Below, one piece after another: positions 5,907-49,380 of a stretch of 64,000 nucleotides of DNA. The notes beneath the pieces were generated by a model, which was given only the letters and a program-made list of their open reading frames with translations, searched no databases and had not been told where the DNA came from. How positions within the stretch are numbered: position 1 is the stretch's first letter; the number at the start of each line of letters is the position of its first letter. This DNA comes from an uncultured Candidatus Bathyarchaeia archaeon (GTDB lineage Archaea; Thermoproteota; Bathyarchaeia; Bathyarchaeales; Bathyarchaeaceae). The DNA is taken from positions 196,875-260,874 of the forward strand of contig CAYQMM010000002.1 in NCBI GenBank assembly GCA_964418675.1, in the 5' to 3' direction. Position numbers and translations under genes: made by a program.

Positions 5907-6548
5907 ATGAAGAAAAGAATTCGCATCGCCCTACCAAACAAGGGGCGCCTAAAGCAACCCGCGATGGAGGTGCTGGGGCAGGCGGGCATAGAAATTCTGG
6001 AGGAGAAACGAACTTACGTTTCCAAGACCTCTGACCCAAGATTCGAGGCGGTCTTCGCCAGAGCCTACGATATACCCGTCTACGTCCACTACGGCGCCGT
6101 TGACCTAGGCATCACTGGTCACGACCTGATTATCGAGAGAGAAGCAGATGTTCTCGAGTTATTGGACCTCGAATTCGGCAAGTGCACTCTCGTCGTCGCT
6201 GTTCCAGAATCCTCAACCATCAATGCGGTCAGTGAGATTCCCGCTCTGACAAGAGTAGCAACCGAATTTCCAGTCCTTGCCAGAAAATATTTCGAAGGAT
6301 TAGGAAAGCAGGTGGAAGTTTTGGAGGTTAGCGGAACCTCAGAACTTGCCCCTAAACTGGGTTTGGCTCAGGTAATCGTGGACATCACATCAAGCGGCGA
6401 AACCCTGCGGAAAAACAGCCTCAGGATAATCGCCACCATCATGGACTCAACTACCCGATTAGCCTGCAATAAGATCGCCTATAGAACCTTCGAGAAGCAA
6501 ATCACCGAGCTATTATCCAGACTGCGAGGAGGGTTAGGAAAAAAATGA
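5907..6548 (+). CDS. hisG: ATP phosphoribosyltransferase, short form
   Basis: 213 aa. IRIALPNKGRL and DITSSGETLRKN motifs. Operon position. Confidence 0.9.
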   Translation: MKKRIRIALPNKGRLKQPAMEVLGQAGIEILEEKRTYVSKTSDPRFEAVFARAYDIPVYVHYGAVDLGITGHDLIIEREADVLELLDLEFGKCTLVVAVPESSTINAVSEIPALTRVATEFPVLARKYFEGLGKQVEVLEVSGTSELAPKLGLAQVIVDITSSGETLRKNSLRIIATIMDSTTRLACNKIAYRTFEKQITELLSRLRGGLGKK

Positions 6549-7846
6549 GAATTGTAACCGCTCAAGAATTCAAAAAGGAACTGCTTAACCAAGTGACGAA
6601 CAGGGGAAAATCTGACCTATCCACGATCTATTCTTCGGTTATACCGATAATAGATGATGTCAGAGAAAAGGGTGACAAAGCCCTTCTGAAATATACGGAA
6701 AAGTTCGACAAAGTGCGCCTTCCCCCATCAAAGCTCAAAGTTGACGAGAGGGAGATAAAAGAGGCATACAAAAAACTGGAAAAAAATCAGATCAGCGCTT
6801 TAAGGAAAGCCGCAGATAACATCGTAAGTTTCCACAAGAAACAGGTCAGAGACAAGTGGACCATGGAGATTGCGGAGGGCGTAACCGTTGGGCAGGTTAC
6901 TCGACCCCTATCGTCTGTTGGTGTCTACGTTCCCGGAGGAAGAGCATCCTATCCTTCTTCGGTGCTGATGTGTGCCATCCCAGCACGAGTAGCTGGAGTC
7001 GAAAAGACCATTATATGTTCACCACCGGGAAAGGGTGGAGACGTTAATCCGGCGCTTTTGGTGGCTGCCGACATAGCTGGAGTAACGGAGATTTATCGTG
7101 TTGGGGGAGCCCAAGCCATAGCCGCCATGGCTTACGGCACAGAAATAGTGCCAAAAGTAGACAAGATTGTGGGTCCGGGAAACGTTTTTGTGACAGCCGC
7201 GAAACTGGAGGTAAGCAAGGACGTTGCTATTGACGTTCCAGCTGGTCCAAGCGAGGTTTTGATAATCGCTGATGAGAGTGGCAAGGCTTCCTTTATTGCT
7301 TCGGACCTCCTTGCCCAAACAGAACACGACCCCCAAGCATGGGCGATTCTCCTCACCACATCCGAAGCTTTAGCGTCAGCGGTTAAAGAAGAGGTTAACA
7401 GGCAGATGAAGTCCCTCTCCAGAACAGAAGTCATAAAGTCCTCCATCCAAAAAGGAGGGCTAATAGTGGTCGTTAGGAACATCGAAGAGGCAATAGAATA
7501 CGCAAATCTGATAGCTCCTGAACACCTACAAATCCAAACCAAGGCTCCCACCGAAGTCTTCAACAAGATTCGAAACGCCGGAGCAGTCTTTCTGGGCGGT
7601 TACTCGCCAGTGGCTTTTGGCGATTACTCCTCCGGATTGAATCACGTCCTTCCCACCAGAGGCTATGCACGATTTTACTCCGGTCTTTCAACGTTAGATT
7701 TTGTTAAGACAATAAACTTTCTCCAGTGCAGTAGAGCGGGCTACGAGACGCTGAAGGAGACAGCAGTTACCCTCGCAAAGATGGAGGGCTTCGACGGACA
7801 CGCAAAATCAGTCGCAATAAGAGAGGATGAAAAAGATGAAAATTGA
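6545..7846 (+). CDS. hisD: Histidinol dehydrogenase
   Basis: 433 aa. Motifs VGVYVPGGRASYPSSVLM, QTEHDP, GDYSSGLNHVLPT. 4-nt overlap with hisG. Confidence 0.92.
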   Translation: MRIVTAQEFKKELLNQVTNRGKSDLSTIYSSVIPIIDDVREKGDKALLKYTEKFDKVRLPPSKLKVDEREIKEAYKKLEKNQISALRKAADNIVSFHKKQVRDKWTMEIAEGVTVGQVTRPLSSVGVYVPGGRASYPSSVLMCAIPARVAGVEKTIICSPPGKGGDVNPALLVAADIAGVTEIYRVGGAQAIAAMAYGTEIVPKVDKIVGPGNVFVTAAKLEVSKDVAIDVPAGPSEVLIIADESGKASFIASDLLAQTEHDPQAWAILLTTSEALASAVKEEVNRQMKSLSRTEVIKSSIQKGGLIVVVRNIEEAIEYANLIAPEHLQIQTKAPTEVFNKIRNAGAVFLGGYSPVAFGDYSSGLNHVLPTRGYARFYSGLSTLDFVKTINFLQCSRAGYETLKETAVTLAKMEGFDGHAKSVAIREDEKDEN

Positions 7847-8927
7847 GGAACTAATTCAAAAGGAAGTTAGAAATCTTTCCTCCTATGAGGTTGAAACCAT
7901 CCTTGGACGAAAACTTTGTGAAAAGATCGTGAAGTTGGACTTCAACGAGAATTTTGCCATGCCAAGCGATATTATAGAAAGGCTGTTGCTTGATGCTTGC
8001 CGAAGCGTTGACGTTAGAGCGTATCCTCCTCCTCGCGGATGCATGGCTGTCAAGGCTGTCTCTAGTTTCCTCGGCTTCAGCGAATCTGAGGTATCGGTGG
8101 CTAACGGTGCAGATGAGATCATTGATTTGCTTATGAAGGTGTTTGTCCGAAGGGGTTCGAAGGTCGTGGTGGTTGAGCCCACGTTTCCCATGTATACTTT
8201 CTTCACGCAGTTGTATGGAGGCAGCAAAGTCACTGCCATGTTGGGACCTAACTTCGAGTTGGATGTTGACTCTGTATTGAAGAAGGCTGACAGGGAAGCT
8301 TCGTTGCTCTTCGTTTGTTCTCCAAACAACCCCACCGGCAACCAATTCCGCGAAGCGGACATCAAAAAACTCTTGCAGGAATTCAAGGGTGTTGTGGTGG
8401 TGGATGAAGCATATGGTGACTTCGCTGGATATTCGGTCATCAAGTGGGTGAGAGACTATGATAACCTTGTTGTATTGCGAAGCTTTTCGAAGGCTTTCGG
8501 TTTGGCTGGACTCCGCCTCGGCTATCTGGTTTCAAACAAATCCATCGTGGAGTATGTTCAGAGAGTGATAAGTCCCTTCAACTTGAATGTGGTAACTCAG
8601 CAGCTCATAACCTTGGCTCTACAGAATTGGAATTACTTCGAAGAACGAATCAAGTTCGTAGTCAACGAACGGCAATGGCTGATGGAGAACCTAACAAGAA
8701 TCGATGGGGTAACTCCTTATCCTTCTGATGCAAATTTCATTCTCTTCAAAGTAACTAAAAGCAATCTCACTTCAGCCACCGTTAAAGAGAGGCTGGAAAC
8801 CCGAAATGTCTTGGTGAAGGACAGGGGGCACCTGCCTCTCCTAGAGAATTGCATACGCGTCACCGTTGGCACCCGAAACATGAACGAAACCTTCCTTTCA
8901 GCCCTTAAAGAGGCTCTGGAGGAATAG
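7827..8927 (+). CDS. hisC: Histidinol-phosphate aminotransferase
   Basis: 366 aa. Class II aminotransferase features (SPNNPTGN, RSFSKAFGLAGLRLGY). Overlaps the hisD end. Confidence 0.9.
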   Translation: MKKMKIEELIQKEVRNLSSYEVETILGRKLCEKIVKLDFNENFAMPSDIIERLLLDACRSVDVRAYPPPRGCMAVKAVSSFLGFSESEVSVANGADEIIDLLMKVFVRRGSKVVVVEPTFPMYTFFTQLYGGSKVTAMLGPNFELDVDSVLKKADREASLLFVCSPNNPTGNQFREADIKKLLQEFKGVVVVDEAYGDFAGYSVIKWVRDYDNLVVLRSFSKAFGLAGLRLGYLVSNKSIVEYVQRVISPFNLNVVTQQLITLALQNWNYFEERIKFVVNERQWLMENLTRIDGVTPYPSDANFILFKVTKSNLTSATVKERLETRNVLVKDRGHLPLLENCIRVTVGTRNMNETFLSALKEALEE

Positions 8928-8933
8928 GCAAGG

Positions 8934-10130
8934 ATGGCTTACCAATTATTGAGTAAAGAAAGGCGGATATACCTGAGGGAAGACGCCGAGGAGACTCTTC
9001 GTGGAATAGACAAGATAATCTTCGATTTCGACGGTGTGCTAGTTCAAACCTCAGAGTCATACCGCCAGACCATAAGGAAGGTTGTTGACTACTACTTCCT
9101 AGAGATTCTGGGTCTTGAGGGAGAAGAGGGGAAGCTAGCTACTTTACGGGATATTCAGAAGTTTAAGGATACGGGACTGTACAACAACGATTGGAACCTC
9201 TCCTACGCCTTCATCACCTACTACCTCAACCTCACAATGAAAGAGCTTGAACAAAAAAGCGCCCTCCAAGATTTCATAAAACGATTCTACAACCTCCAAT
9301 TCTCAGATGCAGAGAACTTCCTTCAAAATCTAAGCGAAGTCGGTTACTATCTAAGACAGAACGGAATTAATGGAACTGACCTAGCCAACCTAAAGAACGA
9401 CGACCTTGTAGGCTTGGATTTGTTCTTGACACAAGTCAACCTTAAAAAACCGAAGCCCATTGAAGCCTCTCTTGTGGGTGTTGACCCAGAAGTTGAAAAT
9501 GACGAAAAAAGGCTTGCTAGGCGCTTGATACCCTACGACCTCGAAAAACCTGACCTTCTGAAGCGCCTGTTTGAAGAGACATATCTGGGCAGAATGTTAT
9601 TCAACAAGTTTTATGGCGTGCCATCCATTTTCAAGTTTGATGCAAGCTTCATAGACAAAGAGACGTTCACTCCCACAAAGGAGACCCTTGATGTGCTTCG
9701 GCAAGAGTTTGGCAAGTTTGGAATATACTCTGGAAGACCCAGAATCCAGGGCATGTACATCCTAGAGAAATACAACTATCTGGAATATTTTGACGAAGAG
9801 GAATCAGTGTTCCTTGGAGACCTGCTTAAATCTGAGGTTGAAATGGAGAAGCTTGGAAAACCAGACCCCACTCTCTTCATCGAGTTGATAGAGAAGTTCT
9901 TCGGGGAGGCAAGTGGGGTGGCTTATGTGGGAGATGGCATCGCAGACGCCCTGCTGGTTGAAAACGCAAGGTCTGAAGGTCTTGAGAACCTATCGTTTCT
10001 AGGCGTCCTGTCCTCATCGGAGGATTCAAATAAACTTTTTACTGAATACGCCAAACATGGAGCTGACGCCATAATAACGGATGTGAATGACATTCCAGGC
10101 ATACTCAAGAGTCTGGGAGGAAGTGTTTGA
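8934..10130 (+). CDS. HAD-superfamily phosphatase with an oversized cap insertion; candidate histidinol-phosphate phosphatase
   Basis: 398 aa. HAD motifs I FDFDGVLVQT, II GIYSGRP, III LGKPDP, IV VGDGIAD. About 230 residues separate motifs I and II. Located between hisC and hisB with 6-nt and 1-nt gaps. Confidence 0.6.
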   Translation: MAYQLLSKERRIYLREDAEETLRGIDKIIFDFDGVLVQTSESYRQTIRKVVDYYFLEILGLEGEEGKLATLRDIQKFKDTGLYNNDWNLSYAFITYYLNLTMKELEQKSALQDFIKRFYNLQFSDAENFLQNLSEVGYYLRQNGINGTDLANLKNDDLVGLDLFLTQVNLKKPKPIEASLVGVDPEVENDEKRLARRLIPYDLEKPDLLKRLFEETYLGRMLFNKFYGVPSIFKFDASFIDKETFTPTKETLDVLRQEFGKFGIYSGRPRIQGMYILEKYNYLEYFDEEESVFLGDLLKSEVEMEKLGKPDPTLFIELIEKFFGEASGVAYVGDGIADALLVENARSEGLENLSFLGVLSSSEDSNKLFTEYAKHGADAIITDVNDIPGILKSLGGSV

Positions 10131-42220: not shown

Positions 42221-42961
42221 ATGGCTCAGCAACTTCATTCAACTTCCATTAAACTAGCCCTTTCAGCCTTCTTCACGGCTTTGGTGTTTGTAGCCACCGT
42301 GATTTTCAGCAGCTATGTTCCTCAAACAACAGGTTTCTTCAATATCGGTGAAACTATGGTTTATACCACTGCCTTACTTTTTGGTCCTTTGGTTGGTGCT
42401 TTCGCTGGGGGGGTTGGTTCTATGCTTGCAGACTTATTCTTGAATTATCCCCTTTTTGCTCCTGCTACTCTTATCATAAAGGGCTGTGAAGGAGCAATAG
42501 TTGGTTTTCTTAGTCGCAAGAAACTTGGGTTAAATTCTAAACTTCAGTGGAGGATTTTCACGTTTGTTGTTGGTTTAGTTGCTGGTCTTCTGTTGGCGGG
42601 TGTGGGTTCAATCTATTATAGTGGGTCTGTTGAGTTGTATATTGGTATTCCTCCGCCTCTAACTCCCAATTTTGTGTTGTCTGTTCCGCCCCTGTTTTGG
42701 TATGGTTTAGGAGCCCTGATTACTGTGCTTATTGCTTTGATGGGTTTTGTGTTTGATCCGGAGTTTGGTTGGCTTGTTCTTACGATTATTGTTGGTGGTT
42801 TGGTGATGGTTTCGGGGTATTTTCTTTATGAGCAGTTCTTTCTTGGTGTGGCGGCGGTGGCGGAGATTCCTATTAATGTGGGGCAGATGAGTGTTGGTCT
42901 TATCGTTTCGATTCCTATTGTGCGGGCTGTGTGGCGTTATCTTCCTTCCCTCAGAACTTAG
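42221..42961 (+). CDS. ECF-transporter S-component-like membrane protein
   Basis: 246 aa, about six TM segments. FFNIGETMVYTTALLFGPLVGAFAGGVGSMLADL resembles substrate-capture S components. Confidence 0.6.
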   Translation: MAQQLHSTSIKLALSAFFTALVFVATVIFSSYVPQTTGFFNIGETMVYTTALLFGPLVGAFAGGVGSMLADLFLNYPLFAPATLIIKGCEGAIVGFLSRKKLGLNSKLQWRIFTFVVGLVAGLLLAGVGSIYYSGSVELYIGIPPPLTPNFVLSVPPLFWYGLGALITVLIALMGFVFDPEFGWLVLTIIVGGLVMVSGYFLYEQFFLGVAAVAEIPINVGQMSVGLIVSIPIVRAVWRYLPSLRT

Positions 42962-44325
42962 TTTTTTGTCTTTTTGAGGGCGTGTATATTTTTTAGTCTC
43001 GGTGTGTAGATGTGTTGGGGTGGGCTGGTGGTGTCAATGGAGCCTAAGAGGTTGGAGAGGGTTCTGGTGGTTTCTAAGGCTGACCCATCTGAGGTTAATG
43101 GGGTTTTGGTTGCTGGGGGCTTCAGGGTTGTTGAGGAGAATCCTGATTTTGTTGTTTGTTTTGGGGGTGATGGTACGGTTTTGTTTGGGGAGAGGAGTTT
43201 CCCTGGGGTTCCTAAGCTTATTGTGAAGACCTCGAGGGTTTGGAGGGAGTGGGATTATACTCTGGAGAACTTGAATGATGTTTTGTCTGGGATTAGGGCG
43301 GGGGATTTTCGGTTGCGTGGGGAGATGAAGTTGGTGGCGGAGGCGGGGGGTGTGAGGTTGGTGGGGTTGAATGAGGTTCAGGTTCATTTGAAGTTGCCGA
43401 TTTCTGCTGTGAGGTTTAGTGTTTCTGTTGATGGGAGGGAGTTTGGTGGTTTGGTGGGTGATGGGGTTGTTGTTGCTACGCCTTTTGGTTCAACGGGGTA
43501 TTATGAGGCGACTGGAGGAGAAAGATTCGAGAAGGGCATTGGTATTTCCTTTAACAACTTGCACAACAGGAAGATAGGGAGTTTTGTGGTTTCGGAGGAT
43601 TCTGTGGTGAAGTTGAGGGTGAGGAGGGGTCCTGCGTGGCTTTTGGCGGATAATAATGAGAATTTTGTTGAGTTGAATGGTGGGGATTCTGCGGTTGTGC
43701 GGAGGGCTGATGGTGTGGCGAGGTTCATTGTTGTTTCTGGGAGGTGAAGGGTGATTGTTGAGGGTTGGGCACCGGGGGGCTAGGGCTTATGAGCCTGAGA
43801 ATACGTTGCGGAGTTTTGGGAGGGCTATTGAGTTGGGGGTTGATGCGGTGGAGTTGGATGTGAGGAGGACGGCGGATGGGGAGGTTGTTGTTGTTCATGA
43901 TGCTAAGGTGGATCGGGTTACGGATGGGAGGGGTTTGGTGGGGGAGCTTACGTTGGAGGAGATTAAGGGGTTCACTGCTGAGAAGGGGGAGAAGATTCCT
44001 ACTTTGGGGGAGGCGTTGGATTTCTTGAAGGGAAAGGTGAAGGTGTTGATAGAGCTGAAGGAAAGTGGCATTGAAGAGCAGGTTGTGGATTTGATTCGTG
44101 AGAGGGGGATGGTGGAGTCTGTGATTGTTGTCTCTTTTTTGGAGGAGGCTCTTGGGAGGGTGAGGGAGTTGGATGAGGGGGTGGCGACGGGCTTGATTTA
44201 TGTTCGGTACAAGAAGCCTGTTGAGGCGGCTTTGGAGTTGGGAGCGGAGTATCTGCTTCCGTTGTATAGGTTTACGCATTCTGCGGATGTGAGGAAGGCT
44301 CATGAGGCTGGGTTAAAGGTGATCG
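42380..44325. other. Tract with a G+T-rich plus strand (A- and C-depleted); the right edge is sharp and falls inside the GDPD ORF
   Basis: Hand count of 43021-43080: G26 T17 A10 C7. 35 of the first 40 codons from 43010 end in G or T. The intergenic stretch 42962-43009 shares the bias. Confidence 0.8.
43037..43747 (+). CDS. nadK: NAD kinase
   Basis: The ORF track starts at 43010. ATG 43037 (MEPKRLERVLVV) gives a typical N-terminus. GGDGTVL and ATPFGSTGY motifs. Confidence 0.85.
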   Translation: MEPKRLERVLVVSKADPSEVNGVLVAGGFRVVEENPDFVVCFGGDGTVLFGERSFPGVPKLIVKTSRVWREWDYTLENLNDVLSGIRAGDFRLRGEMKLVAEAGGVRLVGLNEVQVHLKLPISAVRFSVSVDGREFGGLVGDGVVVATPFGSTGYYEATGGERFEKGIGISFNNLHNRKIGSFVVSEDSVVKLRVRRGPAWLLADNNENFVELNGGDSAVVRRADGVARFIVVSGR

Positions 44326-44417
44326 TCTGGACCATCAACACCCCAGAAGAAGTTAATGAATACATGAAGAAGGGCGTAGACGGCATAGCAACAGACAAAC
44401 CAGACATCTTCAAATAA
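43755..44417 (+). CDS. Glycerophosphodiester phosphodiesterase
   Basis: 220 aa with a TTG start. GHRGA, EPENTLRSF, ELDVRRTADGEVVVVHD. Confidence 0.85.
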   Translation: MLRVGHRGARAYEPENTLRSFGRAIELGVDAVELDVRRTADGEVVVVHDAKVDRVTDGRGLVGELTLEEIKGFTAEKGEKIPTLGEALDFLKGKVKVLIELKESGIEEQVVDLIRERGMVESVIVVSFLEEALGRVRELDEGVATGLIYVRYKKPVEAALELGAEYLLPLYRFTHSADVRKAHEAGLKVIVWTINTPEEVNEYMKKGVDGIATDKPDIFK

Positions 44418-44423
44418 TAAAAA

Positions 44424-44472
44424 CAGAAAAAAGCTAGTTTTCAACAATGAAGTATTATTAGGCTCCAAATAG
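44424..44472 (+). repeat. Left copy of the 48/49-bp inverted repeat (39-bp perfect core at 44428-44466)
   Basis: CAGAAAAAAGCTAGTTTTCAACAATGAAGTATTATTAGGCTCCAAATAG equals the reverse complement of 59504-59551, apart from one extra A and one A/T mismatch. Confidence 0.95.
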
Positions 44473-44509
44473 CTCATGTGAAAAGAGCTAAAAAGGTTCG
44501 TTTTTTAAA

Positions 44510-45475
44510 CTATAATATGCATTCCTGTCTTCGGATAAACAAAAAAATGCTATTGATAGCGGTTAAAGTCACAAGGAAAACCTCAATTGGGAGGTCACTA
44601 GACACATCCCAACTTTGATTATTAATTTCAGTATCCGTTGTATGTTTGAACGCATTTCTCATTTGACCGACAAATTGGATGAAACCAAGTTGTTTCTTGG
44701 TAATCTTTCCAGCTGACTTTAATCTGTTACCTATCTCTATGAAGCCTCTTGTTCTCGTTATGTTAACAGATTCATCATTTGCACATTTCTTGAGAAAGTC
44801 TTCAAAAACATCTGCCGTTTCTTTTATGCAAGAAATTGGCGCTGATTCAAACTTCATGCCAGCTGAAATGAGTTTTTCCTTTAAATCTCCTAAATATTGA
44901 ACAACTGCATCATCTAATTGATTTGCAACATAAGCCTCAATCTGCGCTTCATCATTTAGAGTGTTCTGGATTGATTTGAAAACGTTAAGTATTTCTGGTT
45001 GCTCTTTGAAAATAGGTTCAACACCTCTCTCTGTTTCTGCAAACACTTGTGAAAAACTCCCAAGTTCAAGAAGAGTATTTTTAAGAATTGTTATGCTTCC
45101 TGTAACGTTGAAAACTGTTTTGGTTTTGATTGTTGCACGGGTTACATCTTCCCCCCTGAGAATAAGACCGAAAAAGAATTTGAAAGGCTTGTATTGCATA
45201 AGCAAAAATTTCAAAATAGCTTTTTTATCATTGGCTTTCGCGTTTGAGAGCAAACGGGCAAATGGAAGTGTTGCTTTATAGAGTCCCCCATCATTTTTAA
45301 CAAGCTTAAGTTGCATTGCCATTTTTAATGCCTTTTCAGCTGTATCTGAATCAATATCGGAATATTGAACAATTTCGGGTAGCGTTGCCCTATCTCGTAA
45401 AACAATAACAGCCTCTACAACATCTAGAAGATTTCTATGGTTCACTTCAACAGCTTCATAGTTGCTGGAACTCAT
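44510..45475 (-). CDS. Hypothetical protein: N-terminal winged-helix-like region plus a C-terminal helical domain with a HEPN-type R-x4-H motif (QMRNAFKH); candidate RNase/toxin
   Basis: 321-aa ORF in an AT-rich island. ATGA overlap with the upstream ORF. Motif read directly from the translation. Confidence 0.45.
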   Translation of the reverse strand: MSSSNYEAVEVNHRNLLDVVEAVIVLRDRATLPEIVQYSDIDSDTAEKALKMAMQLKLVKNDGGLYKATLPFARLLSNAKANDKKAILKFLLMQYKPFKFFFGLILRGEDVTRATIKTKTVFNVTGSITILKNTLLELGSFSQVFAETERGVEPIFKEQPEILNVFKSIQNTLNDEAQIEAYVANQLDDAVVQYLGDLKEKLISAGMKFESAPISCIKETADVFEDFLKKCANDESVNITRTRGFIEIGNRLKSAGKITKKQLGFIQFVGQMRNAFKHTTDTEINNQSWDVSSDLPIEVFLVTLTAINSIFLFIRRQECIL

Positions 45476-46257
45476 TCCGTTGCTTCCCCACGTTTTTCAG
45501 AATGAATCAAATAGTTCCTAATCTTCCTAATAGCTTCAGCAATTTCCTGCAAGTCAGACTCTTCTGGGTGTATTGGAACCTGAAAATCCAGTCGAATCTG
45601 AATTTGCATTGGAATTTCCTTTTTTTCTAAAACTCTATATTTTTGGAGTTGTAGCTGTTTTGTTGTAACCTCGGTTCCACTCAATTTTGCTGTAACTTCT
45701 GTCCTAGGTGTCTCCCTCAGTTTCCCAGCAAGTTCAGTGGCAGTGATGTTATCACCCTCTCTTTCAACTAATTTAGAAGTAACGAGAATGTCAATTACTG
45801 CTTGTGCTCCAATGGTCGATCTTGGGTCCTTTTTTGTAACCTTTGCCCGTTTTCCAATTTCATCCCTTAACTGATAATTAGAAATACTGCCTCGGGTTTT
45901 TATCGAAAATACTAAACTTTTCAAAAATTCGTTTTCATAGATTAATGTTCTAAATGCAGAAGAAATCCCTTCCTCGTCACCGTACTCAATTGAGTAAGCT
46001 AGGTCTATGCCTTCCTTGGTTAATGAATAAGCAGTACCTTCTTTTTCTACTATGCCCATGAACTCAATAGCCTTAATATTCTGGCTAACCATTGCAGGGT
46101 GTCTTCCGATATATGTTGACACAGTCTTTGTGGAAACTGGTTGCTTCTCTGCACCAGCATTCAAGAAGCCTTTGATTATGCTTAAAAAAAGGTCATAACT
46201 CCCCCGAGGTAATTCTATCAGTTCTTCGGTTGACAATATGTCTCCCTCATTAATCAA
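45472..46257 (-). CDS. Hypothetical protein with a MarR-like winged helix (possibly two wH units); candidate regulator/partner of the HEPN-like protein
   Basis: 261-aa ORF. VSTKTVSTYIGRHPAMVSQNIKAIEFMGIVEKEGTAYSLTKEG looks like a wHTH. The C-terminus has IRKIRNYLIHS. Confidence 0.45.
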   Translation of the reverse strand: MINEGDILSTEELIELPRGSYDLFLSIIKGFLNAGAEKQPVSTKTVSTYIGRHPAMVSQNIKAIEFMGIVEKEGTAYSLTKEGIDLAYSIEYGDEEGISSAFRTLIYENEFLKSLVFSIKTRGSISNYQLRDEIGKRAKVTKKDPRSTIGAQAVIDILVTSKLVEREGDNITATELAGKLRETPRTEVTAKLSGTEVTTKQLQLQKYRVLEKKEIPMQIQIRLDFQVPIHPEESDLQEIAEAIRKIRNYLIHSEKRGEATE

Positions 46258-46489
46258 TGCATAGCATGTCTTTAATTCTGCTCTTTAGTGTTTCGGTGTA
46301 ATTATATTGATTCATTCGAAACTTTTTTGTTGGATGCATGAACCCTGCCTTGAAGTTTTAGCTATTACTTAATTAGCGAGATCATTACTTTCCTTGTTTA
46401 TTGTGACGTAATAGAAAGTAGCGGGGAAAAGGCGAGAGTATCAGAAAAATGAAGAAACTACATAATTTCATATCTGTAGAACTGTGTTG

Positions 46490-47701
46490 TTACCAGATTG
46501 TTATTTTTCCTTTGATTAGTTGTTGGCAGAAGTTTTCTATGTTTGCCAGTTCAGCGTCTATCACGTCGATTATCCGCTTCTCCACACTCTTCTCCAACGC
46601 GCCGCCACCATCCATAACCACCTGAGCCGCAGCAATCGCAGGCTGATCAATCGGCTTACCAATCCGACTCAACAACCAAACACAAACCTCAGCCGCCTCA
46701 GGCACCTCATCACAAACCCGCCGAGCAATCCTATGACTCAAAGCATTGTAAATCTTCCCCACATGACTAACCGGATTCTTCCCAGCCGCAGCCTCAGTCC
46801 CAATCGGACGATTCAAAGAAATAACACCATTCACCTTATTCCCCCGCCCCACCTGACCAGAATCCGCACCATCCGCACTCGTACCCAAAACAGTCAAATA
46901 CACACCATCCACACCCCGACCCTCAACATCCAAAGTATTCAAACTCACAAAATGCTTCTCAAAACGCCCCTTCCCCTCAACAAACTTGCGGACGTCCTCC
47001 AGCATCGCCGCCTTCTTCTCCATATAATCCCGCTCGCCAGATACAAACCTGTCAACAAAAGCCATAGCGATAGTTAAGTCAAGGCATTCCCCATACCTGA
47101 AACCCATAACCTTCACATCCTCCCCAGCCGCAGGAAACCGATCCTTAAACCCTTTCGAATTCACGTACCTCTCAGTCTCCAAAACCGTATTCTCAACCCT
47201 ACTCAAAGGAGCATAACCCACAGCCGCACTAGTATCATTAGCACCAAACATACACACCTTCCTCCTGAAAATGTCAGTAAGCCCCTGACTACCCGGCTTC
47301 AACTCCACCTGATACCTCATATGCACATCAGGATCAACAAACCGCAAATTCTTCTTCAACCAATCCTTAGCCGTCTCAACAGCAATCTCCCCCACAGGAA
47401 TCTTCTTCCCATCAGCCTCAAAAGTCGCCCGATCACCAAAAATAAGAAGCATTGGCTCATTCACAACACCCCCACCAAACCGGCACTCAACCTCACCCGC
47501 AACCAACAACGACTTATCAGCATTATGATGCAAAATCGCCCCAAACTCATCCAAATACGCCTTACTCAAACCCACAGAAACCTGATCCATAATCGCATCA
47601 CACATAGAATCAGGATGCCCAACACCCTTCCGCTCAACAATCTCAATCTGCTGCTTCTCAAGAGGAATCCGCCTCGAACCAGACACCATAATATTCCGCA
47701 T
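46490..47701 (-). CDS. metK: Archaeal-type S-adenosylmethionine synthetase
   Basis: The ORF track starts at 47728. The internal ATG 47701 gives MRNIMVSG...IEIVERKGVGHPDSMCDAI, the canonical archaeal MAT N-terminus. Confidence 0.88.
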   Translation of the reverse strand: MRNIMVSGSRRIPLEKQQIEIVERKGVGHPDSMCDAIMDQVSVGLSKAYLDEFGAILHHNADKSLLVAGEVECRFGGGVVNEPMLLIFGDRATFEADGKKIPVGEIAVETAKDWLKKNLRFVDPDVHMRYQVELKPGSQGLTDIFRRKVCMFGANDTSAAVGYAPLSRVENTVLETERYVNSKGFKDRFPAAGEDVKVMGFRYGECLDLTIAMAFVDRFVSGERDYMEKKAAMLEDVRKFVEGKGRFEKHFVSLNTLDVEGRGVDGVYLTVLGTSADGADSGQVGRGNKVNGVISLNRPIGTEAAAGKNPVSHVGKIYNALSHRIARRVCDEVPEAAEVCVWLLSRIGKPIDQPAIAAAQVVMDGGGALEKSVEKRIIDVIDAELANIENFCQQLIKGKITIW

Positions 47702-49380
47702 AGAAACACCTTGCCGAATGGCTAACACAAATAATTCATATATACCTTACGATACAACGAGCACCAAAACCCAACACACAACACCTATTCCATCTCGCAC
47801 CACCAAAACTTTTCCACCCCCAATTTTTGCCATAAAATTGTAGCAAACATTGATAAACAAGACCACTCCATACTGCAAAATATGCTAGAACATTTAAAAG
47901 AAGCCTGCGGAGTCTTCGGAGCACAAGACCACCAAAACAAACCCATATTCCCCTACATCTACTGGGGACTACGCGCCCAAAACCACCGCGGACACCAATC
48001 CCACGGCTTCCTCACCTACGACAGCGGAGCATTCCACAGCCACAAAGGACTAGACCTAGTCCCAAAAATAAGAAACGAAGAAATCAACGAATGGCTCACA
48101 AAACTCCCCGGACCAACCGGACTAGGACACGTAAGATACAGCACCTCAGGCGGAACCGACCAACAATCCCTCGTAAAAAGCACCCAACCCATCCTAGAAA
48201 CATACGGAACCAAACAAATCGCCCTAGCCTTCAACGGCAACGTCGTCAACACCCCCCAAATAATCCAAGAAATAAGAGAAGACTACCCCAACTTCCGCTT
48301 CAACTACGACGCAGAACTAATCTCCAGAAAACTCCTAAGACTCGGAAAAAAAGACGACCTAGCCTCATCCATCAAAAGATGCATGAAAGAAATCGAAGGC
48401 GCCTTCTCCGTAGCAGGAATAACCGAAAAAGGAGAACTCTTCGCCTTCAAAGACCCACGCGGAATAAGACCCCTATGCTGCGGCTGCAGCAGAGACAGAA
48501 AAACTTGCGTAGTCTCATCAGAAACCGTGGGCCTAGACATAAACGACTTCCAACTAGATTTTGAAATAAACCCCGGAGAACTCGTAACCGCCACAAAAGA
48601 CGGATTCAACCGGGAACAACTGGTAAACGGAGAAAAAAAGGCATTATGCGCCTTCGAATTCGCCTACTTCTCCAGACCAGACTCAAAACTAGGAGACAAG
48701 CACGTTTACGAAGTAAGAGAAGAATTCGGAAGAAACTTCGCTTGGGAATACCCAGAAACCACCAGCAAAGTAGACATAATCCTATCCATGCCCGAAACAG
48801 GCAACGACGCCGCCTTCGGATTCCACGAACTAACACGCATAAGATGGGAAAGAGCCTCAAGAAGACACAGATACGTAGCAGAAAGAGCCTTCATCCTCCT
48901 ACCCGAAGAACGATACACAACAATAAACAGAAAAATCAACATCGTCGACCACAAACTAATCGGAAAAAACGTCGCAGTAGTAGATGACAGCATCGTCAGA
49001 GGCGACACCACCAAAGTCGTAGTGAAAAAACTCCGCGAAATGGGCGCAAAAAAAATCTACCTCTTCATCACCTTCCCCCGAATAATAGGCCCCTGCTTCT
49101 ACGGAGTCGACATGGCAACCTACCGAGAACTCATAGGATCACGATACGAACCCGAAGAGATAGCAGAGATAGTGGGCGCCGACGCCGTAAACTACCAATC
49201 AGTAGAAGGACTTGTCAAAGCCACCGGCATGAACAAAGACGAACTATGCCTAGGATGCATCACAGGCAAATATCCCACGCCCATGGCACAGAGACTGGCA
49301 GACGAAATGAAAGAAAGATTCGCGAACGGCTACAACGAACAAGGAAGAATATACGAGACTGCCATCAACTAACCCAGAAT
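46570..49380. other. Tract with an A+C-rich plus strand (G- and T-depleted) spanning most of metK (minus strand), the divergent intergenic region and all of purF (plus strand)
   Basis: Hand counts: 47401-47460 A19 C19 G8 T14; 48091-48150 A20 C20 G13 T7. 37 of the first 40 purF codons end in A or C. The intergenic stretch 47729-47881 has only about 10 G. Confidence 0.8.
47882..49372 (+). CDS. purF: Amidophosphoribosyltransferase
   Basis: 496 aa. Propeptide then CGVFG. Ntn-amidotransferase and PRTase (VVDDSIVRGDT) motifs. Confidence 0.9.
   Translation: MLEHLKEACGVFGAQDHQNKPIFPYIYWGLRAQNHRGHQSHGFLTYDSGAFHSHKGLDLVPKIRNEEINEWLTKLPGPTGLGHVRYSTSGGTDQQSLVKSTQPILETYGTKQIALAFNGNVVNTPQIIQEIREDYPNFRFNYDAELISRKLLRLGKKDDLASSIKRCMKEIEGAFSVAGITEKGELFAFKDPRGIRPLCCGCSRDRKTCVVSSETVGLDINDFQLDFEINPGELVTATKDGFNREQLVNGEKKALCAFEFAYFSRPDSKLGDKHVYEVREEFGRNFAWEYPETTSKVDIILSMPETGNDAAFGFHELTRIRWERASRRHRYVAERAFILLPEERYTTINRKINIVDHKLIGKNVAVVDDSIVRGDTTKVVVKKLREMGAKKIYLFITFPRIIGPCFYGVDMATYRELIGSRYEPEEIAEIVGADAVNYQSVEGLVKATGMNKDELCLGCITGKYPTPMAQRLADEMKERFANGYNEQGRIYETAIN

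Follow-up and report, generated by a model that had tools for sequence, protein, structure and literature searches.

An AT-rich cassette beside metK in Candidatus Bathyarchaeum encodes a predicted tandem winged-helix HEPN RNase and a winged-helix partner

The window analysed here, a 64,000-nucleotide stretch of contig CAYQMM010000002.1 from an uncultured Candidatus Bathyarchaeia archaeon, carries an AT-rich island between the 3′ ends of the GDPD and metK genes. The island holds two overlapping genes, named A and B below, and is probably a horizontally acquired two-gene cassette of the toxin-antitoxin or abortive-infection type, residing in a hot spot downstream of metK. Gene B encodes two winged helices followed by a C-terminal HEPN domain, and gene A encodes a tandem winged-helix partner. 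HEPN RNases are recurring effectors of prokaryotic immunity and toxin-antitoxin systems, and to our knowledge archaeal HEPN RNases outside CRISPR and HEPN/MNT pairs (MNT, minimal nucleotidyltransferase) have barely been charted. The features of the island are listed here by their positions in the window, together with the predicted local distance difference test (pLDDT) scores of the AlphaFold2 models.

44418..46489, no strand: AT-rich inserted segment (the cargo), delimited by GC content, the empty site of a relative and the break in homology
44510..45475, minus strand: gene B, ATG-start open reading frame (ORF) of 321 aa, tandem winged helix and C-terminal HEPN domain (DUF4145-like), predicted RNase
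45014..45439, minus strand: B residues 13-154, two winged helices (13-68 and 96-154), AlphaFold2 pLDDT 90-97
44510..44890, minus strand: B residues ~196-321, HEPN domain, from AlphaFold2, Foldseek and the DUF4145/HEPN matches of relatives
44642..44659, minus strand: codons of the Rx4H motif R273-N274-A-F-K-H278, read from the sequence
44789..44803, minus strand: codons of the Ex3K motif E225-D-F-L-K229 in HEPN helix 2, from conservation among the homologues
45472..46257, minus strand: gene A, tandem winged-helix partner, 261 aa as listed, from the ORF, homologues and AlphaFold2
45739..46197, minus strand: A residues 21-173, two winged helices (21-79 and 95-173), AlphaFold2 pLDDT 85-98 and tandem winged-helix structural matches
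45610..45711, minus strand: A residues 183-216, 34-residue disordered linker, pLDDT <50, variable and gapped in the homologue alignment
45502..45609, minus strand: A residues 217-252, conserved C-terminal strand and helix (MQIQIRLDFQVPxHP...IAxxIRKIRN)
46258..46489, minus strand: leader or promoter region, 232 nt, non-coding, ~95 nt of it conserved with the cassette copy L104

HEPN domains carry an Rx4-6H motif with a polar N, D or H directly after the arginine; their helix 2 typically bears an acidic Ex3[KR] motif and is separated from helix 3 by an insert (PMC3710099). In protein B, R273 is followed by N274, the majority residue at this position, with H278 completing the motif, and E225 and K229 form the acidic motif within helix 2. 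The helix layout of the AlphaFold2 model (built on a 16-sequence alignment, mean pLDDT 82) was that of a HEPN domain, with helix 2 at residues 213-234, the insert at 245-254, helix 3 at 260-276 and helix 4 at 296-316; R273 and N274 close helix 3 and H278 lies in the loop that follows. A Foldseek search of the PDB with this model returned solved HEPN domains at probabilities of 0.97-1.00 and TM(target) values (template modelling score) of 0.5-0.71. The domain-level matches were to HepT (6m6w_H, 6m6u_H, 7bxo_F/H and 5yep_B) and to an AMPylated HEPN toxin (7ae6_B), and the Archaeoglobus HEPN protein AF0298 (2hsb) matched with TM(target) 0.71. Csm6 was also among the matches, more weakly (probability 0.35-0.6) and as whole multi-domain chains, and the rest were winged-helix proteins. 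A fold search of the viral collection BFVD gave no significant result. For the N-terminal half, sequence profiles pointed to the winged-helix fold as well. Against PDB sequences, the full-length family profile of B matched winged-helix regulators, and neither this profile nor one of the HEPN domain alone gave anything but such regulators or a chance match, with no HEPN protein among the results; AAA_assoc_C, a Pfam model of winged-helix type, was matched over this half by 11 of 142 relatives of B.

Conservation singled out the residues of the HEPN motifs. A word-indexed search recovered 16 close homologues of B, all annotated as ‘hypothetical’ and one of them from an Odinarchaeia metagenome-assembled genome (MAG); full-length homologues with few indels extended to identities as low as 46% (B) and 52% (A). 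With an exhaustive profile search, the B family grew to 335 cluster representatives at E ≤ 1e-3, 224 of them at E ≤ 1e-10 (clusters being defined at 50% identity), nearly all of which were ~320 aa long and matched from end to end. When 142 distant relatives were aligned (~22% identity to B, 25% mean column identity), only R273, H278 and W289 were invariant, and E225 was conserved in at least 90% of the sequences. R273 and H278 were invariant also in the 16 close homologues, among which K229 did not vary either. A regular-expression search detected R-x4-5-H at the equivalent position (~residue 255-300) in all retrieved relatives but one, a 203-aa N-terminal fragment; the form R-[NDHQ]-x3-H was present in 128 of 165 relatives. 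The first-pass annotation, made from the letters of the DNA, had described B as a protein with a winged-helix-like N-terminus and a helical C-terminal domain bearing the HEPN signature RNxxxH, and had named the conservation of R and H and the HEPN fold beforehand as tests. Both came out in favour of this description, the fold as a four-helix HEPN-like domain in the AlphaFold2 model with HEPN matches in Foldseek. Protein B very likely contains a HEPN domain whose catalytic signature is intact.

Within the HEPN superfamily, B is placed near DUF4145 yet outside it. DUF4145 belongs to the HEPN clan (PMC3710099) and was matched by 20 of the 142 relatives at E ≤ 0.01 (best E 1.6e-5), and PF05168 (HEPN) was matched weakly by a single one; these matches lie over B residues ~205-288. 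Relatives that were inspected individually scored 12.7-16.4 bits against a DUF4145 cut-off of 23.1, and B itself did not reach the gathering cut-off of PF13643, giving no match to this model even at E ≤ 10. The absence of a match for B and the sub-cut-off scores of its relatives point to a related but separate family in the HEPN clan. Direct searches of Pfam, NCBIfam, PADLOC and PHROGs with A and B returned nothing significant, so that the Pfam and PADLOC searches recommended in the first-pass annotation found no model covering either protein. The clusters of the B family number in the hundreds, lack annotation and come from metagenomes only; the Odinarchaeia MAG contributes one, and the host of the window belongs to Bathyarchaeia. 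No B homologue was found in a scan of GTDB species representatives, and a scan of JGI metagenomes recovered the known loci and nothing further. In one relative from an NCBI metagenome assembly (P0080, 507 aa), the two winged helices and the HEPN domain follow 200 additional N-terminal residues that include an IF2_N domain (E 2.8e-9). This protein hints that the family perhaps also occurs outside archaea and is able to gain extra nucleic-acid-binding modules.

Protein A was represented by 12 homologues at 52-79% identity in the word-indexed search, again all ‘hypothetical’. Its listed length is 261 aa, but the true start is probably the second TTG (46236), giving 254 aa, since a GAGGGAG motif resembling a Shine-Dalgarno sequence precedes this codon and the N-termini of the homologues (MS.EE.IELPRGSY) match from there. 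The AlphaFold2 model (pLDDT 81) contained two winged helices, in agreement with the earlier proposal of a MarR-like winged helix followed by a second such unit; A and B thus have two winged-helix domains each. Foldseek matched A with the winged helices 2-4 of SelB (bound to SECIS RNA), the recognition domains of BpuJI and N.BspD6I, and Sso10a. In Pfam and PADLOC its winged-helix region gave sub-threshold matches to winged helix-turn-helix models. The PADLOC matches were at the level of the winged helix only (E ~0.01) and included weak ones to CasR and WH_III-A; models containing a CARF domain were matched by A alone, through its winged-helix region alone and at E ≥ 0.009. No nucleotidyltransferase was matched by A in Pfam, NCBIfam, PADLOC or the fold search, and the earlier statement that the island lacks an MNT-type antitoxin therefore stands. 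A and B were also considered as paralogues, and this was rejected because they show no profile similarity.

Beyond the disordered linker, the C-terminal element of A is strongly constrained. P216, Q218, I219, L223, F225, V227, H230, P231, I239, I243, I246 and R247 were invariant, and the helix at 233-252 was modelled at pLDDT 80-87. Residues 217-252 are a candidate B-binding element. The protein ends in IRNYLIH, an R-x4-H sequence shared by 9 of the 12 homologues. A second HEPN motif here, which the IRKIRNYLIHS ending had suggested, was rejected: the histidine is missing from 3 of the 12 homologues and the motif from the distant partners described below, and since the histidine is not universal and only a single helix is present, this ending is not a HEPN domain.

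Turning to the island itself, its edges are the 3′ end of GDPD at 44417 and the 3′ end of metK at 46490. Its GC content was 36.5%, compared with a mean of 46.4% (standard deviation 2.5%) over all 2072-nt windows of the 64 kb; it was the lowest of these windows, the next non-overlapping one having 40.0%. Sequence similarity to relatives stops ~25 nt past the metK stop codon and restarts at the GDPD stop codon. On the minus strand, positions 45472-45475 read ATGA, in which the TGA stop of gene A overlaps the ATG start of gene B. The right neighbour, metK, encodes an archaeal-type AdoMet synthetase (Pfam AdoMet_Synthase, matched on the identical Logan contig), and the left neighbour, a 220-aa ORF, is taken as GDPD by inference from its HRG...ENT motifs. 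In the leader, the ~25 nt nearest metK are ancestral intergenic DNA, and ~95 nt 5′ of gene A were conserved at 81% in L104, which holds the closest copy of the cassette. The island contained no other credible ORF and nothing that matched Rfam. Neither terminal repeats, inverted or direct, nor a duplicated target site were found around the island: no direct repeats occur at its edges and no inverted repeats bracket or abut it, the only pairs being of 12-25 nt (72-95% complementarity) and none of them flanking. As regards the first-pass annotation, the AT-rich island between the GDPD and metK 3′ ends is real and is the lowest-GC 2-kb window, the two overlapping minus-strand ORFs (321 and 261 aa, joined by ATGA) are exactly as described, and all three quoted peptide stretches are present; the left inverted repeat, immediately inside which the island was said to lie, could not be reproduced.

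The two genes behave as a unit. Where enough upstream DNA was present on the contig, A was found directly 5′ of B, namely at L001/L003, L005, L006, L007, L008, L104 and L105 and on the P0016 contig, and the two genes overlapped at start and stop or were separated by no more than 4 nt at six loci other than the window. A and B therefore constitute a single operon with coupled translation. In soil metagenomes, the protein encoded ahead of distant B homologues has 280-284 aa and aligns with A collinearly, though at weak scores, over both winged helices and the C-terminal element. In two distant branches of the B family, the gene directly downstream of the HEPN gene (L097 4658-5386 and L100 1973-2701) codes for a DUF5343 protein of 242 aa (E 2e-6 to 2e-5), which points to a version of the system with three genes. 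No mention of DUF5343 was found in the searched literature. The neighbourhoods of the cassette elsewhere were as follows.

L008: Cas1 gene 310 nt downstream of B (Pfam E 3e-47)
L005: Cas1 gene 2.7 kb downstream of B
L006: gene for an 863-aa N6/N4 DNA methyltransferase with an NmeDI-like C-terminus
L007: gene for a winged-helix-PLD nuclease with a PADLOC MkoC/DrmC match
P0016 contig: tyrosine integrase gene
L001: ordinary genes

Over 1.8 kb the DNA of the nearest copy, L104, shares 81% identity with the window, and its flanks are unrelated; at five of six close loci the cassette was AT-richer than its surroundings. PADLOC-DB v2 assigned neither A nor B to a system (B matched no families), and distant relatives had no match there either. 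A conserved core-genome context of the homologues, which the first-pass annotation had listed as evidence that would count against a defence module, was not observed; the pair moves among unrelated neighbourhoods.

Presence and absence of the island in related genomes, a comparison proposed at the outset, could be read directly at the metK site. The host is Candidatus Bathyarchaeum, whose MetK shares 86-87% identity with the MetK proteins of CP070820.1 and CAZUQX01, and four states of the site were found.

Window: A-B cassette between metK and GDPD
CP070820.1 (L012): empty site, metK and GDPD stop codons ~108 bp apart
CAZUQX01 (L013): a different AT-rich pair of 207 and 263 aa, in opposite orientation, no family matches
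CAZUDX01 (L014): AT-rich segment of 2.4 kb with a TIR_2 protein and a tyrosine recombinase, other housekeeping genes beyond

The sister genome L012 is thus empty, and L013 and L014 hold other cargo. L012, L013 and L014 are alike for ~45 nt past the metK stop codon and then diverge, whereas the window matches them for ~25 nt only. Because the site is empty in the sister genome, the A-B pair is dispensable, and we are confident that the cassette is accessory and horizontally mobile. Taken together, the four states indicate that the 3′ flank of metK is an integration hot spot for largely defence-type AT-rich cargo, with A-B as one occupant.

The other occupants were characterised in outline. In L013 the overlapping pair (7346-8711 of CAZUQX010000003.1, 35.7% GC) lies in the gap between metK and GDPD and had no match in Pfam, NCBIfam, PADLOC, PHROGs or PDB sequences. 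Its 263-aa protein contains VRNKRNIGH, a possible R-x6-H, and the pair may be another uncharacterised cassette. In L014 the segment (7272-9296 of CAZUDX010000001.1) codes for a protein of 295 aa whose C-terminal domain is TIR_2 (E 1.3e-19) and for a tyrosine recombinase of 282 aa (Phage_integrase, E 4e-5). On the far side of this cargo, GDPD and the NAD-kinase-like gene are replaced by genes for a 3-hydroxyacyl-CoA dehydrogenase, a ChsH2-like protein and a thiolase; this locus was therefore rearranged besides gaining cargo.

The site is flanked by two tracts of opposite composition. On the plus strand, 85-100% of third codon positions are G/T from ~42580 to ~44350, a tract that spans the 3′ half of a membrane-protein gene, the NAD-kinase-like gene and GDPD; from ~46610 to ~49200, over metK (minus strand) and purF (plus strand), only 0-12% are G/T (88-100% A/C). 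As metK and purF are biased alike on one physical strand, the bias does not follow the coding strand. Listed as a pair of regions, the asymmetry occupies 42350-44350 and 46610-49300 of the window. The left tract begins within a gene, and the metK-purF spacer is G-depleted too (7% G). An effect of the coding strand, of transcription or of codon selection was therefore rejected, given the strand bias shared by metK and purF, the intragenic left edge and the G-poor spacer. At four-fold degenerate sites where the outgroup has A, the biased clade had 48 G, 19 T and 12 A. The bias was extreme only in the clade with MetK identity of at least 80% and was weaker in more distant Bathyarchaeum.

The mirror tracts are also present on both sides of the empty site and of the other cargos; in L014 they extend over different genes, and the cargo itself is unbiased. 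The island cannot have caused them, being absent or replaced where they occur in relatives, and a skew travelling with the cassette was likewise rejected, as other cassette loci lack it. The first-pass annotation had placed the island exactly where the opposite tracts meet; this location was confirmed, but the tracts are unconnected with the origin of the island because they already exist at the empty site. Their polarity fits either the 3′ tails of a break resected at the site or the lagging-strand templates of converging forks. As a model of the hot spot, the strand whose 3′ end faces the site, 85-100% G/T at synonymous positions for 2-3 kb on each side, would have been recurrently exposed as single strand and would have undergone A→G and C→T change, either as a resected 3′ tail or as the template of forks that converge and stall. 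On this model the metK 3′ flank would be an undescribed kind of archaeal hot spot, where chronic breakage or fork collision recruits interchangeable defence cargos and A-B is a new two-component nucleic-acid-sensing HEPN system. We regard this combined proposal as speculative and quite unlikely to hold in full.

Long stop-free ORFs lie antisense or out of frame to metK, GDPD and purF, at 46520-47077 (plus strand), 47321-47725 (plus), 43725-44303 (minus) and 48091-48564 (plus), and in L013 a 400-aa stop-free ORF (5977-7179, minus strand) covers all of metK. They are spurious, since with third positions of G/T or A/C only a frame starting there never begins a codon with T, and they should not be read as genes.

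How the cassette would work can be outlined by analogy with other HEPN enzymes and with toxin-antitoxin pairs. The HEPN domain of B would dimerise and form a composite, metal-independent RNase site. Protein A, made first and in a fixed ratio, would keep B inactive through its tethered C-terminal element, and its winged helices would probably also repress the operon. Upon loss or titration of A, or when the winged helices sense a nucleic-acid cue during virus infection or loss of the element, B would be freed and would cut cellular and/or viral RNA, leading to growth arrest. The layout is that of a generic type II toxin-antitoxin system, with coupled co-directional genes and an upstream winged-helix protein A that has a flexible linker and a conserved C-terminal element. 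With moderate confidence we propose that the cassette acts as a toxin or defence effector; that A is specifically an antitoxin is a more tentative suggestion, and one on which we do not insist. Of the earlier view of the island as a candidate novel toxin or defence module, the fold, the motif and the non-core context were borne out, and the toxicity, the RNase activity of B and the antitoxin role of A are inferred from them.

Several observations weigh against this account. The loop of B that carries H278 was modelled at pLDDT <50. The Foldseek E-values of the HEPN matches were weak (0.08-0.3), which is explained by the use of the full three-domain model as the query. Protein B had no significant match to HEPN profiles, a profile of its HEPN domain alone found no HEPN protein among PDB sequences, and its relatives match DUF4145 mostly below the Pfam cut-off. 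At 254-261 aa, A is far larger than typical type II antitoxins, and upstream of gene A no operator or palindrome was conserved across seven loci. The likeness of the distant partners to A has weak scores (hhalign E 0.003-0.006), and in some distant relatives of B the HEPN gene instead follows a 133-aa gene and precedes one for DUF5343, so that not every member has the arrangement of two genes. The contexts are also few (~ten loci), mostly on short contigs, and no copies of the cassette were found in phage, plasmid and IMG/VR collections.

The main rival is a sensor-effector defence pair, in which B inhibits itself and A is a positive partner, a trigger sensor or a scaffold for assembly, that senses foreign nucleic acid or protein through its winged helices and switches B on. 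A is large for an antitoxin, both proteins have tandem winged helices, the closest structures are nucleic-acid readers specific for sequence or structure (SelB-SECIS, BpuJI and N.BspD6I), and RAZR, the DUF4145 HEPN protein that is characterised best, is activated by assembly on phage proteins, not by release from an antitoxin (PMC13017515). The defence-type neighbourhoods are the same under either reading. However, the A-then-B order, the tight coupling and the flexible, conserved tail of A make up the classic layout of a type II antitoxin, and we consider such a sensor-effector pair unlikely. Cas1 genes near B in L008 and L005 could instead indicate a CRISPR-linked accessory module, an ancillary RNase and its regulator associated with Cas1 or adaptation in the manner of Csm6/Csx1; Csm6 among the Foldseek matches and the weak matches of the A winged helices to the PADLOC models CasR and WH_III-A are in line with this. 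But neither protein has a CARF domain, the Csm6 matches were of low probability and to whole chains, the four contigs examined for CRISPR arrays (L005-L008) had none, the island has no cas gene or array, and most contexts are without cas genes, which makes a CRISPR-linked role very improbable.

A and B might also be non-toxic nucleic-acid-binding regulators or chromatin proteins, with the HEPN domain as a ligand- or RNA-binding module or a processing module for a dedicated substrate. The four winged-helix domains across the pair would suit this role, certain families of HEPN proteins lack catalysis or serve in RNA processing (PMC3710099), and the distant soil relatives show no GC anomaly and are found repeatedly beside one and the same gene, for an M20 peptidase. 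However, no residues of the whole family are more conserved than the catalytic R, H and E, which argues for catalysis over binding alone, and presence or absence at one site, shifting neighbourhoods and AT-richness speak against housekeeping, leaving a non-toxic pair improbable. Lastly, the ORFs could be spurious or in decay within a remnant of AT-rich intergenic DNA, a reading to which the database annotations (never beyond ‘hypothetical protein’) might lend some colour; it is refuted by the full-length conserved homologues, the hundreds of distant relatives and the confident folds, and we give it practically no credence. The toxin-antitoxin or abortive-infection-type cassette is accordingly the reading we retain.

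The analysis defines a sizeable unannotated family (335 clusters) with a fixed architecture of tandem winged helices and HEPN domain, and, in the closer branch of this family, a new type of partner protein. Key residues of B (R273, H278, E225 and W289) are pinpointed. The four winged-helix domains of the pair suggest nucleic-acid recognition, possibly useful or mechanistically new. The locus also documents a Bathyarchaeia hot spot for defence cargo in four alternative states with extreme local strand asymmetry, and the combination of hot spot and mirror-image strand bias is a stranger observation than the cassette.

Among known systems, RAZR is a DUF4145 HEPN protein experimentally proven to be an abortive-infection RNase that needs R and H (PMC13017515). 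Like B, RAZR (PD-T7-4) has a C-terminal HEPN domain of the DUF4145 type after an N-terminal recognition module and is found in a defence context, and its HEPN domain was superposed on 7AE6 (PMC13017515), which was also among the Foldseek matches of B. RAZR is, however, a bacterial single-gene system with a Cys4 zinc ribbon and the pair R146...H154, whereas B is of archaeal type with two winged helices and an obligate partner. Lacking a zinc ribbon and not being a single-gene system, the cassette is not RAZR, and PADLOC, which covers many PD-T systems, had no match for B. HepT-MntA, a toxin-antitoxin system of type II/VII, resembles the cassette in having two genes and a HEPN RNase toxin with Rx4H, and it provided the best domain-level structural matches (5yep, 6m6w, 7bxo and 7ae6). 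No sequence similarity of B to HepT was detectable. HepT toxins are stand-alone HEPN proteins of ~130 aa, whereas B has ~195 additional residues with two winged helices, and their antitoxin, MntA, acts as a minimal nucleotidyltransferase by AMPylating the toxin; the cassette has no such enzyme and is therefore not a HepT-MntA system.

DUF4145 (PF13643, clan CL0291) was the only sequence family reached from the B family, with a match covering helix 2 to helix 3 and the motif. DUF4145 proteins are often located in restriction-modification and defence neighbourhoods (PMC3710099), as is B. Their listed architectures include restriction endonuclease, helicase, sigma-HTH, AbiJ-NTD1, transmembrane and other domains and, unlike B, neither an N-terminus of tandem winged helices nor a partner of the A type (PMC3710099). 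Csm6/Csx1 proteins share with B an HTH-like region joined to a C-terminal HEPN RNase, in their case in the middle of the protein, and the cassette is at times near Cas1. They have a CARF sensor, however, whereas the N-terminus of B consists of two winged helices with no evident cyclic-oligoadenylate logic; with no CARF domain, the cassette is not Csm6/Csx1. What is new is thus the effector of tandem winged helices and HEPN domain together with its tandem winged-helix partner, and what is known is the logic of a HEPN toxin cassette.

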